Assembly: GCF_013167455.1 (NCBI RefSeq)
Contig: NZ_CP038328.1
DNA length: 64,000 nt
From: Escherichia coli O157:H7
GTDB taxonomy: Bacteria > Pseudomonadota > Gammaproteobacteria > Enterobacterales > Enterobacteriaceae
Direction: 5' to 3' (one strand)
The notes under the pieces were generated by a model that saw only the letters and a list, made by a program, of their open reading frames with translations, was not told the origin of the DNA and made no database searches. Shown here one piece after another: positions 5,716 through 60,850 of the stretch. How positions within the stretch are numbered: the stretch's first letter is position 1; each line of letters begins with the position of its first letter. A program made the position numbers and the translations under genes.

Positions 5716-5976
5716 TTACTGACGAGGATGCTTCAATAACTTCTTTACGTAATCGCGCAGCAGCTCCGTATCGTCGTCAGGAATGCTGGCATCGGGCTTT
5801 ACCTCGTACAGCGCCCCCTCTACCTGATCAATCAACCGCTGTTGGTCATTTTGCGCCATATTGCGAAGCATTGCAGTGACGATAATCTCCAAAGCTTCTA
5901 CCTGCGCACACAGTTCTTTCGACTCTTCTTCTTTTTGGGCAAGCTTAAATAACAACTCAGCAATGAGATTTTTCAT
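5716..5976 (-). CDS. iraP: Anti-adaptor protein IraP (86 aa)
   Basis: [32 protein letters not shown]... coiled-coil small protein; position upstream of phoA. Confidence 0.85.
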
Positions 5977-6438
5977 GTCTGTATTTCCTTATCCAAAGTA
6001 TGGAGAAGTTAACATTATGTTTCACAACTTCATAGTGTCTGGAGGTATTATTTTTATGGCAAAGGAAATACTTTGCGCAAATATTTTTTGTTTGATTACC
6101 AGCGAAACGTTTCTCTTATTTAAATAATTACCCACACAAAACATAGGCTTTTAATTATCAACCTTTATTATAAATAAAAGTTATGAAATATATTCTCTTC
6201 GTTAACTTATAATTAAGAGAAAAAAACTCACCGCATGGCCATTTAAGCCAGGAATAAATTAGCTTCCCGTTCATCATTTTTGTGATCTTGCGCACATCTT
6301 TGAGATAACGCACTTTCTTCACCAGTACGTTGCACGCTTTGTCAGCAGAAGATTGCAACAATCTTTCAGAAGGCCGCGAATCCCCCGTTTTGTCGTGGTA
6401 ATGTATGCACTTTGTGTTAGACGGGATAGGTTTTTAAG

Positions 6439-31516: not shown

Positions 31517-31620
31517 ACGACTGCCGGATGCGGCGTGAACGCCTTATCCGCCTACATTTCGCCCGCAGGCCGTAGGCATGATAAGACGCGCATAGCGTCG
31601 CATCAGGCATCTGCGCACGA
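31517..31620. repeat. REP-type palindromic elements downstream of frmB
   Basis: GCCGGATGCGGCGTGAACGCCTTATCCG and GGCATGATAAGACGCG...GCATCAGGC motifs read directly. Confidence 0.75.
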
Positions 31621-48448: not shown

Positions 48449-48478
48449 GTCGGATGCGGCGCGAGCGCCTTATCCGAC
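48449..48478. repeat. REP element between lacY and lacA
   Basis: GTCGGATGCGGCGCGAGCGCCTTATCCGAC read directly. Confidence 0.8.
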
Positions 48479-49116: not shown

Positions 49117-49126
49117 ATTATAAAAA

Positions 49127-49200
49127 TTGCCTGATACGCTTCGCTTATCAGGCCTACAAATTCAGTGATCTATGTAGGCCGCATCCGGCGTGAACAAAGC
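49127..49200. repeat. Pair of REP elements between convergent lacA and cynX
   Basis: GCCTGATACGCTTCGCTTATCAGGCCTAC and GTAGGCCGCATCCGGCG read directly. Confidence 0.8.
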
Positions 49201-52575: not shown

Positions 52576-52588
52576 CCACTGACACAAT

Positions 52589-52670
52589 TGCCTGATGCGT
52601 TACGCTTATCAGGCCTACGAGTTCAGTGCTCTACGTAGGCCTGATAAGGCGTTCAAGCCGCATCCGGCAT
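52589..52670. repeat. REP elements between convergent cynR and codA
   Basis: GCCTGATGCGTTACGCTTATCAGGCCTAC and GTAGGCCTGATAAGGCGTTCAAGCCGCATCCGGC read directly. Confidence 0.8.
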
Positions 52671-52707: not shown

Positions 52708-53991
52708 TCACCGTTTGTAATCGATGGCTTCCGGCTGCTCCAGATATACGGTGGTTTGTGCCGGTTGTGTGCTGGCAATCACCTTGCCGCCACGTACCGA
52801 ATAACGTACCGGAACCTGACGGCGCAGCGCATCAAATCCATTTTCAGCCGGCAGGATAATCAGGTTGGCGCTGTTTCCGGCGGCAATGCTGTAATCCTGC
52901 AAATTCAACGTCCTGGCGCTGTGGTGGGTGATTAAATTCAGGCCATCGTTAATCTGCCCATAGCCCATCAGCTGGCAAACATGCAGCCCCATATGCAGCA
53001 CTTGCAGCATATTCGCCGTTCCCAGCGGATACCACGGATCGAAGACATCATCGTGACCAAAGCAGACGTTAATGCCGGACTCCAGCATCTCTTTAACGCG
53101 CGTGATGCCGCGACGTTTTGGATACGTATCGAATCGTCCTTGCAGATGAATATTGACCAGCGGGTTGGCGACAAAGTTAATACCGGACATTTTCAGCAAG
53201 CGGAACAGACGTGAGGTATACGCCCCGTTATAAGAGTGCATTGCCGTGGTGTGGCTGGCGGTGACTCGCGCGCCCATGCCTTCACGGTGCGCCAGGGCAG
53301 CAACGGTTTCGACAAAGCGCGACTGCTCGTCATCGATCTCATCACAGTGAACGTCGATGAGACGGTCGTATTTTTGCGCCAGGGCGAAGGTTTTATGCAG
53401 CGACTCCACGCCGTATTCACGGGTAAATTCAAAATGCGGAATCGCCCCCACTACATCTGCCCCTAAGCGTAACGCCTCTTCCAGCAACGCTTCACCGTTG
53501 GGATACGACAAAATCCCTTCCTGAGGGAAGGCGACGATTTGCAGATCAATCCACGGCGCGACTTCCAGCTTCACTTCCAGCATTGCTTTCAGCGCAGTTA
53601 GCGTTGCATCCGAAACATCGACATGGGTACGCACATGCTGAATGCCGTTGGCAATCTGCCATTTCAGCGTTTGCCATGCGCGTTGTTTCACATCGTCATG
53701 GGTTAATAACGCTTTGCGCTCGGCCCAGCGTTCAATGCCTTCAAACAGCGTGCCGGACTGATTCCAGTTCGGTTGTCCGGCGGTTTGCGTGGTGTCCAGG
53801 TGAATATGTGGCTCCACAAACGGCGGTATAACTAAACCTTGTTCGGCATCCAGGCTGTTTTCAGTTATGGGCATCACGCCGGATTGCGCATCAATGGCGC
53901 TGATTTTTCCGTCCTGCAGATGAATCTGCCACAGCCCCTCTTTGCCTGGCAACCGGGCGTTAATAATTGTTTGTAAAGCGTTATTCGACAC
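52708..53991 (-). CDS. codA: Cytosine deaminase, GTG start (427 aa)
   Basis: Amidohydrolase with HIHLD metal-binding motif; overlaps the codB 3' end by 11 nt. Confidence 0.9.
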
Positions 53992-55240
53992 TGTTAGCCT
54001 CCACATGCGTCATTGCTGCTGTCGTTTTACGATTCAAAATCGGGTTAAGGATCAGATAGCTCAGCGCGCCACCTAATACCGCGTTGACCGGAACAATTCC
54101 CGGTAACCAGTGGCCTGCAGCAATCCCCAGGGCGACCGCCAGAATCGCCACCCAATTGACACTCATCATACGCGTGGTCGCAAAGTGCTCATAGCGGCGA
54201 CGGTTCATCAGATAGTCGGCAATGATCACGCCACCCACTGGAGGAATAGCTGCCGAAAGGAAGGTCAACCAGCCGACAAAATTGTTATACAGCCATAATG
54301 CACAGACCGTACCGATAATACCGTTGATTACCGAAAGGGTTTTGCTCGACATCCCGGTAATGTTGGCGAAACCTAAACCCGACGCATAGAGCGCGTTATC
54401 GTTGGTGGTCCAGATATTTAGCCCCAGCACCACAATCGCAGGCAACAGCAGGCCCTGAGCAATCATCACATCAGAGATATCCGCCATCCCCAGTGCCGCA
54501 GCGCCCGCTGCACCGAAAATAAACATCAACGAGTTGCCGAGGAAAAAGGCCACCATCGCCACCAGCACCGCCAGTTTGGCATTGCGACCAAAGCGGACAA
54601 AGTCAGCGGTGAGCGTGCCCGCACTGATAAATGACCCCACAACCAGCGCCAGCGCGACATTGAAATCTAACGGTTGTGCGGGAACGACCGCTTTTAAGGC
54701 GTCCAGGCCGCCCATGCCGTTAACGGCCAGCCACACGGAATAACCGCCAAGACAGGCGATAGCCGGAACCGCAATCAACGAAAGAACCGTCAGCGCCGAA
54801 ATGCCAAAGAAGACGGTGACGGTCATCAGTAAACCGGAAACGGCAATCAGCAAATTAATATCCAGCCCGGTTGCCTTGCCCACCGGAATAGCAAACATCG
54901 CCACACCGACGCCAAACCAGCCAACCTGGGTGCCGCCCAGCAGCAGTGAAGGCAGCCATGAGCCTTTAACACCAAACGAGAAGCGAGCAAGAAGATGAGT
55001 GGTCAGGCCGGTTTTTGCGCCAATGTAACCGAGAAATGAAGTGTAAATACCGAGGAGAAGATTACCGATGAGAACTGCGAGGAAGAAATCATGATAGCTA
55101 AGACCGGTTCCGAGAGTGCCGCCGGTCCACATACTGGCGGAAAAGAAGGTTAATCCCAGCATGACGAACGTCAATGCCAATACCCCTTTCCGCGCCGACT
55201 GCGGGACCGGCCCCTGGCTAAAGTTGTTATCTTGCGACAC
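53981..55240 (-). CDS. codB: Cytosine permease (NCS1 family)
   Basis: 419 aa polytopic membrane protein. Confidence 0.9.
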
Positions 55241-55384
55241 GAAATTCCCCCTTTTTGCTGTTTGAAACCCAAAAAATCCGCCGCATTCTATTCATCTGAA
55301 GATAAAAAGCAATCGTTTTCGTGGGGAAATATATTTTTTATATGAATGAGTGCAAAAAGGTGGGGGGAAAATTATCGGTGTAAA

Positions 55385-56128
55385 AACAGTGGGTAGGCAT
55401 GATAAGACGCGTCAGCGTCGCATCAGGCAACTACGCACGGTGTCGGATGCGGCGCGAGCGCCTTATCCGACCTACGGTTCAGGCCTGTAGGCATGATAAG
55501 ACGCGCCTGCGTCGTATCAGGCATCTGCGCACGGTGTCGGATGCGGCGCGAGCGCCTTATCCGACCTACGGTTCAGGCCTGTAGGCATGATAAGACGCAT
55601 CAGCGTCGCATCAGGCACTGAGCACGGTGTCGGATGCGGTGCGAGCGCCTTATCCGACCTACGGTTCAGGCCTGTAGGCATGATAAGACGCATCAGCGTC
55701 GCATCAGGCATCTGCGCATGGTGTCGGATGCGGCGCGAGCGCCTTATCCGACCTACGGTTCAGGCCTGTAGGCATGATAAGACGCGCCTGCGTCGCATCA
55801 GGCATCGGCGCATGGTGTCGAATGCGGCGCGAGCGCCTTATCCGACCTACGGTTCAGGCCTGTAGGCATGATAAGACGCATCAGCGTCGCATCAGGCATC
55901 GGCGCATGGTGTCGAATGCGGTGCGAGCGCCTTATCCGACCTACGGTTCAGGCCTGTAGGCATGATAAGACGCATCAGCGTCGCATCAGGCATCTGCGCA
56001 TGGTGTCGGATGCGGCGCGAGCGCCTTATCCGACCTACGGTTCAGGCCTGTAGGCATGATAAGACGCGCCAGCGTCGCATCAGGCATCTGCGCACAACTG
56101 TCGGATGCGCCACGCGACGCATCCGACA
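55385..56128. repeat. Tandem array (about 8 copies) of a roughly 94-bp composite REP/BIME-type unit between the codB promoter and the prpE 3' end
   Basis: The motif TAGGCATGATAAGACGC recurs at about 55394, 55488, 55582, 55675, 55769, 55863, 55957 and 56051, each followed by GTCGGATGCGGCGCGAGCGCCTTATCCGACCTACGGTTCAGGCCTG. Confidence 0.9.
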
Positions 56129-56133
56129 ATACC

Positions 56134-58020
56134 TTACTCTTCCATCGCCTGGCGGATCTGATTCAACGACGCAGGATCATCAATGGTCGTCAGATCCCCA
56201 GGATCGCGTCCTTCGCAAATCGCCTGGATCGTGCGGCGCAGCATTTTTCCGGATCGCGTTTTTGGCAATTGCGAGACAAACCAGACGTGCGCCGGGCGGC
56301 CAAAGTTGCCAATCTGGCTGTCCACCAGCGCCATAATCGCCTTCTCTTGCGAATGCGCCACATCACGATCTTCCAGACTGTCGCTCTCTTTCGGAATGAC
56401 AAACGCCACCGCCACCTGCCCTTTCAGCGCATCTTTCACCCCAACCACCGCCACTTCGGCAACGCCCGGATGACTGGAGATACTCTCTTCAATCTCGCGC
56501 GTCCCCAGCCGATGCCCGGCAACGTTAATCACATCGTCAGTGCGCCCGAGAATAAAGTGATAACCGTCAGCGTCACGGATGCCCCAGTCAAAGGTGGCGT
56601 ACACCGGGCGGGAAAACAGCGACCAGTACGTCTTCACAAAGCGGTCGTCGTCGCCCCAGATGGTCTGAATACACCCCGGCGGCAGCGGCCCTTCCACCAC
56701 CAGCATCCCTTTCTCGTTGACGCCACACGGTTCGCCGGTGACTTCATTAAGCAACTGCACGTTATAGCCATACATCGGCACGCCGGGGCTTCCCAGACGC
56801 GTCGGCCTGTCGTCCAGACCGCGAGCAATCGCCATAATCGGCCAGCCGGATTCGGTCTGCCAGTAGTTGTCGATGACCGGCACATCCAGCGTATTGCTCA
56901 CCCAACTGGCGGTCGGCTCGTCCAGCGGTTCTCCAGCCAGATAGAGCACTTCCAGCGACGAGAGATCGTGTTTGCGAATTTCAGCGGTAGGGAATTTTTT
57001 CAGCACGCGAATGGCGGTCGGCGCTGAGAACATCCGGCTAACCTGATATTTCTCGACGATTTTCCACCACACGCCGCAGTCCGGCCAGGTCGGTAATCCT
57101 TCGTAAACGATAGTCGCCATCCCCGCCAGCAGCGGCGCGTAGACGATATACGAATGCCCCACCACCCAGCCGATATCCGAAGCACAAAAGAACACACCGC
57201 CCGCTTTGCCGCCAAAAATGGTGTCCATCGAGGTCGCCAGCGCCACCGCATATCCGCCAACGTCACGCTGCACGCCTTTAGGTTTGCCGGTCGTGCCGGA
57301 GGTGTAGAGAATGCAGGAGGTTTCGTTGGATTCCAGCCACGCCACCGGTACCCGCGCGCCGATGTGTTGATGGCGCAACGACGCGAAATCGACATCCCGC
57401 CCGCTGACGCGTGCCATTTTCGCCAGCCCGCGATCCACCAGCAAAACATGGCGTGGCTGGTGCTGCGCCTGACTTATCGCATCGTCGAGCAATTTTTTAT
57501 AGGGAATGATTTTGCCACCGCGCGCTCCGGCATCAGCCGAGACAATCAGCACCGGTTTAGCATCATCAATTCGCGCCGCCACGCTGTGCGAGGCAAATCC
57601 CCCAAACACCACCGAGTGAATAGCGCCAATGCGCGCGCAGGCCAGCAGAGTAATATGCGCTTCGGCAATCATCGGCATATACACCAGCACCCGATCGCCA
57701 CGCTGCACGCCCAGCGAGCGCAGCATTGACGCCACCGCGTTTACTTCGTCATGAAGCTGGCGAAAGGTAAAGGTGCGCTCTTCTTCTGTTTCCGAAGAGA
57801 CGGCAATCAGCGCCAGCGCCTCTGGTTGTTTCTCCAGCCAGCGGTCGATAGCGTTGTGGCACAAGTTGGTTCGGCCTTCACAAAACCAACGGGCAAACGG
57901 CGGATTGCTGTGATCGAGCGTTTGCGTAAAGGGCGTCTGCCAGTCAATACGCCGGGCCTGCTCGGCCCAGAACTGCTCCGGTTCGTTAATCGAACGCTGA
58001 TAAAATTCGCTAAAAGACAT
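56134..58020 (-). CDS. prpE: Propionyl-CoA synthetase
   Basis: 628 aa acyl-CoA synthetase with YTSGTTGKPKG motif. Confidence 0.95.
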   Translation of the reverse strand: MSFSEFYQRSINEPEQFWAEQARRIDWQTPFTQTLDHSNPPFARWFCEGRTNLCHNAIDRWLEKQPEALALIAVSSETEEERTFTFRQLHDEVNAVASMLRSLGVQRGDRVLVYMPMIAEAHITLLACARIGAIHSVVFGGFASHSVAARIDDAKPVLIVSADAGARGGKIIPYKKLLDDAISQAQHQPRHVLLVDRGLAKMARVSGRDVDFASLRHQHIGARVPVAWLESNETSCILYTSGTTGKPKGVQRDVGGYAVALATSMDTIFGGKAGGVFFCASDIGWVVGHSYIVYAPLLAGMATIVYEGLPTWPDCGVWWKIVEKYQVSRMFSAPTAIRVLKKFPTAEIRKHDLSSLEVLYLAGEPLDEPTASWVSNTLDVPVIDNYWQTESGWPIMAIARGLDDRPTRLGSPGVPMYGYNVQLLNEVTGEPCGVNEKGMLVVEGPLPPGCIQTIWGDDDRFVKTYWSLFSRPVYATFDWGIRDADGYHFILGRTDDVINVAGHRLGTREIEESISSHPGVAEVAVVGVKDALKGQVAVAFVIPKESDSLEDRDVAHSQEKAIMALVDSQIGNFGRPAHVWFVSQLPKTRSGKMLRRTIQAICEGRDPGDLTTIDDPASLNQIRQAMEE

Positions 58021-60714: not shown

Positions 60715-60755
60715 ATTGTCCTCGTCATTGTTATCATTTGTAGGGTCGAGATTGT

Positions 60756-60850
60756 TGTCGGATGCGACGCCATGCGTCTTATCCGACCTACAGTTCACCC
60801 CGTAGGCCTGATAAGTCGCGTCAGCGGCGCATCAGGCATCGGTTGTCGAA
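60756..60850. repeat. REP elements in the prpB-prpC intergenic region
   Basis: GTCGGATGCGACGCCATGCGTCTTATCCGACCTAC and GTAGGCCTGATAAGTCGCGTCAGCGGCGCATCAGGC read directly. Confidence 0.8.

Follow-up and report, generated by a model that had tools for sequence, protein, structure and literature searches.

The spacer between prpE and codB in Escherichia coli O157:H7 holds a long tandem array, which raises the questions of what kind of element this is, how it reached its present length and whether that length matters to the genes on either side. The locus was analysed in a stretch of 64,000 nucleotides (the window), in which the prpE-codB spacer measures 893 bp. The original prediction placed a tandem array of about eight 94-bp units between the two genes, and Tandem Repeats Finder agreed with it. 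The anticipated 93-94-bp periodicity was recovered as a single array at 55393-56109 (period 94, 7.6 copies, 94% matches, no indels, score 1243). When the 18-mer GTAGGCATGATAAGACGC was used as an anchor, it marked the eight unit starts listed in Table 1, at successive spacings of 94, 94, 93, 94, 94, 94 and 94 bp. The element is a BIME-2 cluster, a known kind of variable non-coding element, and does not represent a new system.

Anatomy and family of the array

Read on the + strand, a unit consists of a 36-nt palindrome, a 13-nt linker, a 34-nt palindrome and an 11-nt linker. The first palindrome is an inverted long Z REP that begins with GTAG (GTAGGCATGATAAGACGC, a 4-nt loop and GCGTCGCATCAGGC), and the second is a Y REP that ends with CTAC (GTCGGATGCGGCGCGAGCGCCTTATCCGACCTAC). 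The 13-nt linker reads ATCTGCGCACGGT with variants and the 11-nt linker reads GGTTCAGGCCT. The whole array contains eight inverted Z2 and seven direct Y REPs, which makes 15 canonical REPs, in addition to a terminal hairpin. The Y core and the Z core each gave 8-9 matches in the window compared to 0.00 expected from shuffles, so the array is not a product of chance.

The array is entirely extragenic, lying between the stop codon of prpE (56134) and the start codon of codB (55240). Since both genes are on the - strand, transcription runs from prpE through the spacer into codB. The array had been thought to begin just upstream of codB. This was wrong, because its left end is 152 bases from the codB start codon, which leaves space for a codB promoter. 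At the other end the array does reach within a few bp of the prpE stop, as predicted, the terminal hairpin ending five nucleotides away from it.

Table 1. Position of the array, its units, the flanking genes and other REP loci in the window. The naRNA4 values are bit scores from the Rfam scan.
Feature	Position	Strand	Details
codB (cytosine permease) CDS	53981..55240	-	ORF list; RefSeq annotation of identical or near-identical DNA; transcriptionally downstream of the array
Unique codB 5' region	55241..55392	-	sigma-70-like promoter match in promoter scan, first hexamer starting at 55356 and second ending at 55328
T-run just beyond the last REP	55383..55387	-	AAAAA on the + strand; within the unique codB 5' region
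Unit 1	55393..55486	-	Z2 55393-55428, linker 55429-55441 (variant AACTACGCACGGT), Y 55442-55475, linker 55476-55486; naRNA4 69.0 bits
Unit 2	55487..55580	-	Z2 55487-55522, linker, Y 55536-55569, linker; naRNA4 69.3 bits
Unit 3, 93 bp	55581..55673	-	Z2 55581-55616, Y 55629-55662; one base deleted in the 13-nt linker; naRNA4 65.7 bits
Unit 4	55674..55767	-	Z2 55674-55709, Y 55723-55756; same sequence as unit 7; naRNA4 66.7 bits
Unit 5	55768..55861	-	Z2 55768-55803, Y 55817-55850, stem variant GTCGAAT; naRNA4 65.2 bits
Unit 6	55862..55955	-	Z2 55862-55897, Y 55911-55944, two stem/loop variants; naRNA4 57.9 bits, just below 59.5
Unit 7	55956..56049	-	Z2 55956-55991, Y 56005-56038; same sequence as unit 4; missing in O157:H7 MD2019EC2705C4; naRNA4 66.7 bits
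Unit 8, partial	56050..56098	-	Z2 56050-56085 and linker ATCTGCGCACAAC
Terminal perfect hairpin	56099..56128	-	TGTCGGATGCG / CGCATCCGACA; 11-bp inverted repeat 56099-56109 / 56118-56128
prpE (propionate--CoA ligase) CDS, last of prpBCDE	56134..58020	-	ORF list; RefSeq annotation
REP locus	31572..31620		at most two REPs
Solitary Y REP, lacY-lacA	48449..48478		30-nt core
REP locus	49120..49200		at most two REPs
REP locus	52581..52670		at most two REPs
Single BIME, prp cluster	60754..60840		Y, 10-nt linker AGTTCACCCC, long Z REP

The REPs were typed against the three REP queries printed in Durrant et al. (2024). The second palindrome was identical to the Y REP at 29 of 34 positions. The reverse complement of the first was identical to the long Z REP at 33 of 36 positions, and its alignment to the short Z REP took four gaps. 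Both are imperfect palindromes of 30-40 nt with GTAG/CTAC at the foot. The palindromes of the array body are therefore of the REP/BIME type that had been proposed for all units. The proposal did not hold for the last, prpE-proximal element, which derives from a Y REP but forms a perfect hairpin and is not a canonical REP. Its left arm matches the Y REP; it has neither GTAG/CTAC nor an internal mismatch, and its alignment to the Y consensus is weak (24/33). The Y REPs of the array retain the AA/GC internal mismatch, which is required for TnpA-REP binding (Ton-Hoang et al. 2012).

As in other BIME-2s, REP orientation alternates, the linkers of 13 and 11 nt are short, the units repeat in tandem (period 94) and the composition is Y plus Z2, the Z REP being the 36-nt one that also occurs next to rayT and within REP325. 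The REPs flanking rayT in K-12 have been described as Y and Z2, with 'BIME-2 on both sides' (Nunvar et al. 2010; Ton-Hoang et al. 2012), and REP325 as Y-l-Z2 (Qian et al. 2015); Messing (2012) labels the Z REPs of the REPtron z1, and naming in the literature is not uniform. Since the long Z matches the REPs of the rayT REPtron and REP325, where it is called Z2, the array is, judged by its sequence, a BIME-2 according to the published definitions (Ton-Hoang; Chiapello). A reading of the long Z as 'Z1' and of the array as an 'atypical BIME' was overturned by the rayT REPtron and REP325 sequences and by the naming in three papers. A CRISPR-like array was also rejected, as the 'spacers' are constant linkers.

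BIME-2s of K-12 hold 'two to twelve' REPs (Chiapello et al.). The 15 canonical REPs and terminal hairpin found here exceed this range, and strain GF60 has more. Because the published range describes K-12, we read the excess as a wider range of the family and not as an exclusion from it. Size is the sole mild extension over known BIME-2s.

The BIME-2s of the K-12 rayT REPtron have a long Z2 with the same ATCATGCCTAC variant as the prpE-codB array. Their 13-nt Y-Z2 linker nearly matches that of the array (ATTGTGCGCAGAT against ACCGTGCGCAGAT, 11/13), and over the REPtron linkers the identity was 9-11/13. GCCTGAAC is common to the REPtron head-to-head linker and to the 11-nt linker of the array, which is 6 nt shorter than the 17 nt of the REPtron. 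The REPtron BIMEs flank the transposase gene, whereas the prpE-codB array has no adjoining transposase and lies about 100 kb away in K-12 coordinates.

Copy number among strains

A flank-only query with 1 kb per side matched 5,230 of 5,426 complete E. coli genomes, and copy number was counted in 60 rows taken at even steps down the ranking of these 5,230. Two Z2 REPs per junction were commonest (26 rows), followed by one (17 rows) and three (6 rows), so that 43 of the 60 rows, or about three quarters, had one or two. Four, six and ten Z2 REPs occurred in one row each and eight in five rows, four of which were O157-type (EDL933 among them) and the fifth KE47. The remaining entries were two with IS621 in the spacer and one partial match. 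Eight Z2 REPs is the O157:H7 allele, nearly fixed in the O157:H7 records sampled.

Spacer lengths were determined in strains selected across the ranking. The shortest spacer was that of O43 RM10042 (236 bp, one Z2 REP), followed by Z1323MEC0001, whose array ends in a Y REP (324 bp, two), K-12 (329 bp, two), MS1170 (418 bp, three), BS15R-A (518 bp, four), Combat11I9 (702 bp, six) and O157:H7 MD2019EC2705C4 (799 bp, seven). The window has eight Z2 REPs, as do GN02270 and KE47 with spacers of 900 bp, and GF60 has ten in 1079 bp. Copy number thus differs between strains, as had been foreseen, the E. coli genomes having between 1 and 10 Z-type REPs, and the comparison at this junction gave alleles of 1, 2, 3, 4, 6, 7, 8 and 10 Z2 REPs that differ by whole units of about 94 bp. 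The K-12 allele has the same flanks, unit plan and terminal hairpin as the window; it contains two Z2 and one Y REP, and the window has six more units. The prpE stop codon is TAG in K-12 and TAA in the window. Tandem BIME copies at one locus are known to be alike and to vary in number by strain (Ton-Hoang et al. 2012), and BIME-2 length polymorphism was demonstrated by PCR on 51 isolates in 1997 (as cited in Chiapello et al.).

When the units were typed by sequence, the window read 1-2-3-4-5-6-4-7 and O157:H7 MD2019EC2705C4 read 1-2-3-4-5-6-7, the second copy of type 4 (unit 7) being cleanly lost. The string of Combat11I9 was x-4-4-5-8-7, with variants common to O157 but reshuffled. GN02270 and KE47 both read 9-10-11-10-12-13-14-15, an unrelated set. 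This is the pattern expected if units are gained, lost and recombined in register. Such growth and shrinkage would be explained by slippage during replication or by unequal recombination among units that are nearly identical, and the REP-associated transposase RayT may assist, the Y REPs keeping its binding features.

An array was also found at the same locus in E. whittamii Sa2BVA5, where prpE, a 2.7-copy array of period 95, codB and codA follow in order (extracted locus 5925-6176). The element is therefore older than E. coli in the strict sense. In an exact-junction scan with one genome per species, E. whittamii was the only species recovered; the 38-nt pattern is too strict for more diverged species. 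A second, unrelated REP repeat of 92 bp is present at 1088-1282 of the E. whittamii locus.

The unique codB 5' region was conserved in every strain compared but GF60. In this strain, which has the ten-unit allele, CACGGTTCAGGCCT, taken from the head-to-head linker, stands in place of the usual left border GGTGTAAAAACAGTGG, indicating that the array grew or recombined beyond its normal boundary and that the T-run was removed. GN02270 and KE47 have identical arrays, an eight-unit allele of otherwise independent make-up in which 7 bp (GTAGTGG) are duplicated at the left edge. MS1170 and Z1323MEC0001 have no terminal perfect hairpin, and a full Y REP ends the array instead. Their prpE stop codon TAG forms the last three bases of the GTAG of this REP, so the terminal REP begins at the prpE stop codon. 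Ten further sampled rows had a spacer length matching this arrangement. Strains of this type presumably belong to phylogroup B2.

In strain 23CRST029 (extracted locus 1069-2676), IS621, an IS110-family element with a bridge-RNA recombinase, is inserted in the codB-prpE spacer. It interrupts the first Z2 REP, separating GTAG from GCCTGAT, at its published natural target ATCAGGCCTAC. All eight Z2 REPs of the window read ATCATGCCTAC, with one mismatch to this target.

Transcript structure and proposed role at the 3' end of prpE

The array occupies the 3' UTR of prpE, on the transcribed strand. RNA of the - strand had a folding energy of -383 kcal/mol compared to -302 ± 7 kcal/mol for shuffles (z = -12), and single units folded at about -40 kcal/mol. 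In the predicted fold the Y REP was often paired with a neighbouring Z2 instead of folding on itself. The terminal hairpin alone gave -25.7 kcal/mol (z = -5.6), and its RNA stem begins 3 nt past the stop codon. A scan of 55100-56300 detected no intrinsic terminator, defined as a G+C-rich hairpin with a direct U-run. The transcript strand is highly structured and not C-rich (C/G = 1.09), and so is not a classical rut site. Rho-dependent termination is reportedly aided by REPs (Nunvar et al. 2010).

A variant was observed at the codB end of the window array (55372-55445, - strand), where the unit 1 linker has AACTAC compared to ATCTGC in the other units. The variant yields a GUAG, to which the CUAC in the last Z2 REP is complementary and pairs. 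In the fold, this extends the last Z2 hairpin to within a base of UGUUUUU (-23 kcal/mol), resembling an intrinsic terminator. The extended hairpin did not form in the folds of K-12, MS1170 and Z1323MEC0001, and appeared only in the O157 allele.

REP325, the BIME-2 array between yjdM and yjdN of E. coli K-12 and the source of naRNA1-6, is likewise built of tandem Y-linker-Z2 modules; its two flanking genes share one orientation, and it occupies the 3' UTR of the gene upstream. It has period 100 and 5.8 copies (12 REPs), compared to period 94 and 15 REPs plus the terminal perfect hairpin in the prpE-codB array. The head-to-head linkers differ in sequence, with 17 nt in REP325 and 11 nt in the prpE-codB array. 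The Y foot of REP325 is the canonical GCCGGAT...ATCCGGC, whereas here it is GTCGGAT...ATCCGAC, a change from the consensus on both sides; the Z2 of the prpE-codB array has the ATCATGCC variant, unlike that of REP325. According to Harris et al. (2026), the yjdM mRNA upstream is stabilised by REP325 and less transcription reaches yjdN, the array acting as a partly Rho-dependent terminator whose Rho dependence is seen only at full length. The same study found that, genome-wide, tandem gene pairs with REPs have higher upstream-to-downstream expression ratios, that REP effects are context-dependent and that mRNA half-life is not uniformly changed by REPs.

The best explanation of the locus, and in our judgement a very probable one, is a Y/Z2 BIME-2 that has grown to eight Z2 and seven Y REPs with a terminal hairpin. 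Judged from REP325, its most likely function would be to protect the 3' end of the prpE mRNA and to reduce read-through into codBA. An insulating or RNA-stabilising role, as had been suggested beforehand, is plausible in the light of published work on REP325 and other BIMEs. The array would form the structured 3' end of the prpBCDE transcript made from the prp promoter. Its stacked hairpins would block 3'-to-5' exonucleases and so stabilise the prpE mRNA, as suggested by REP325 and earlier BIME work, and read-through into codBA may be attenuated partly via Rho, as at REP325. The codBA genes would then be driven by a promoter of their own in the 152-bp unique stretch. BIME-2s are reported to be bound with high affinity, and cleaved, by DNA gyrase, and as DNA the array would probably offer gyrase a strong site. 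Where a REP lies no more than 15 nt from a stop codon, ribosomes are stalled and trans-translation is triggered (Liang et al. 2015, as summarised in another paper); by the same token the hairpin 3-5 nt past the prpE stop could lower PrpE synthesis by stalling terminating ribosomes. That a local 3'-UTR role exists at all, as these analogies suggest, we put slightly above an even chance. A measurable change of this role by the extra O157 units is rather unlikely.

Growth without consequence is the strongest competitor, and we consider it a real possibility, although somewhat below even. The extra units would then be neutral or selfish DNA, their number drifting by slippage or recombination, perhaps with RayT, and any effect on expression would be that of the one- or two-unit alleles. 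One or two Z2 REPs suffice in about three quarters of the sampled genomes, which speaks for the extra O157 units being dispensable and perhaps neutral. Long alleles are scattered over unrelated strains with different unit variants, IS621 insertions in the array are tolerated, and some units carry uncompensated stem mismatches (GTCGAAT). No compensatory stem changes were seen among the 21 distinct 94-nt units from this locus. However, paired columns are less variable than loops and linkers: these 21 units have 22 variable columns, 5 of 46 among paired and 17 of 48 among unpaired or linker positions (Fisher p = 0.007, for units that are non-independent). This contrast between stem and loop could come partly from the non-independence of the units; lower variation in paired positions has been described genome-wide (Harris et al. 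2026). The near-fixation of the eight-unit allele among the O157:H7 records also speaks against pure drift, as does the full-length requirement for Rho-dependent attenuation at REP325, which indicates that length can matter.

At the opposite extreme, array length may be a heritable dial of expression. Eight units would pass a threshold for Rho-dependent termination and exonuclease blocking, leaving codBA better insulated from prp transcription induced by propionate, and the prpE mRNA stabler, than with the one or two units of most E. coli. A precedent for such a threshold is REP325, where the effect was obtained with the full-length array and not with fragments of 2-4 hairpins (Harris et al. 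2026). The O157-specific linker variant of unit 1 could contribute, turning the last Z2 hairpin into an intrinsic-terminator-like stem that abuts the U-run. A dial of this kind seems improbable to us.

Other readings, use of the locus and further REP loci

A whole-window Rfam scan at gathering thresholds returned a single family, naRNA4 (RF02564), for which the gathering score is 59.5 bits. Six units scored 65.2-69.3 bits on the - strand over the full length of the model (1-77); one unit (57.9 bits) and the partial unit (51.4 bits) were below the cut-off. Scores on the + strand were 12-20 bits lower, so that matches above threshold were confined to the strand on which prpE is transcribed, and the orientation with respect to transcription is therefore the same as in REP325. 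On this evidence, and on the Y-linker-Z2 plan common to the unit and REP325, the array might be a cluster of naRNA4-like RNA genes whose units are processed to two-hairpin RNAs that, with HU, bridge cruciform DNA and condense the chromosome, following the HU and naRNA4 model of Qian et al. (2015). We regard this as very unlikely. naRNA4 is the 77-nt Y-l-Z2 module of REP325 (Qian et al. 2015), and because the Rfam model was built on that module it in effect profiles BIME-2; the matches restate REP-pair homology and do not speak to function. The function itself (HU binding and DNA condensation) is disputed. Nucleoid volume was unchanged on deletion or overexpression of REP325, REP-REP contacts were absent in Hi-C, and HU, DNA and naRNA4 did not assemble into a stable ternary complex (Harris et al. 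2026).

A duplicated BIME-1 (RIB/RIP element, an IHF-binding REP pair) would also combine a Y REP with a Z-family REP in inverse orientation, but its probability is next to nil, and it was rejected on linker length, copy number and the missing IHF site. The array has the long type of Z REP, known as Z2 from the rayT REPtron and REP325, and its linkers of 13 and 11 nt are not the long L motif. The IHF consensus WATCAANNNNTTR had no match on either strand of the spacer (55241-56133). BIME-1 occurs in single copies (Ton-Hoang et al. 2012), whereas the units here are repeated.

An assembly artefact or a protein-coding repeat has an equally negligible probability. Tandem repeats can be mis-assembled and six-frame ORFs of 61-124 aa span the array, but three independent complete genomes (2017C-4109, MA11 and O157:H7 Z1615) match the 1493-bp stretch around it at 100% identity, which excludes an artefact. 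The unit spacing recurs in EDL933, the lengths of other alleles are offset by clean multiples of about 94 bp, and the period, 94, not being divisible by 3, speaks against a coding repeat. The ORFs had been called spurious beforehand, correctly so: a Pfam search gave no match to any of them, and in the RefSeq records examined the spacer carries no annotated CDS save the IS621 transposase.

Descriptions of BIME-2 arrays, of their copy-number polymorphism and of their likely roles in protecting mRNA 3' ends, in partial termination and in binding gyrase date back to the 1990s, and the O157:H7 reference genomes have contained the eight-unit allele from their first sequencing, so the significance of the array is mostly one of bookkeeping. 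The K-12 RefSeq record lists no REP features at the prpE-codB locus, and a paper on O157 genome diversification names prpE only with regard to a Mu-like prophage and leaves the array unmentioned. Annotators should mask the 61-124-aa ORFs inside the array, and the locus is a spot where short-read assemblies may collapse. With its clean repeat of about 94 bp and its alleles of 1-10 units, the locus could be used for coarse typing. The alleles also form a natural series for asking if termination and mRNA stability are tuned by the length of a REP array, which the 2026 preprint on REP325 (Harris et al.) has put up for debate again.

REPs were also found elsewhere in the window (Table 1). Between lacY and lacA there is a solitary Y REP with a core identical to that of the array Y REPs, the GTCGGAT...ATCCGAC foot included; the Y variant is therefore not specific to the prpE-codB locus. 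The single BIME within the prp cluster follows the plan of the array units, and its Y REP has the GTCGGAT foot as well. Among the other REP loci, one consists of a single long-Z REP with the same linker start (ATCTGCGCACG) behind it. The other two, one downstream of lacA and one between cynR and codA, each pair a short-Z REP with a Y-like REP.
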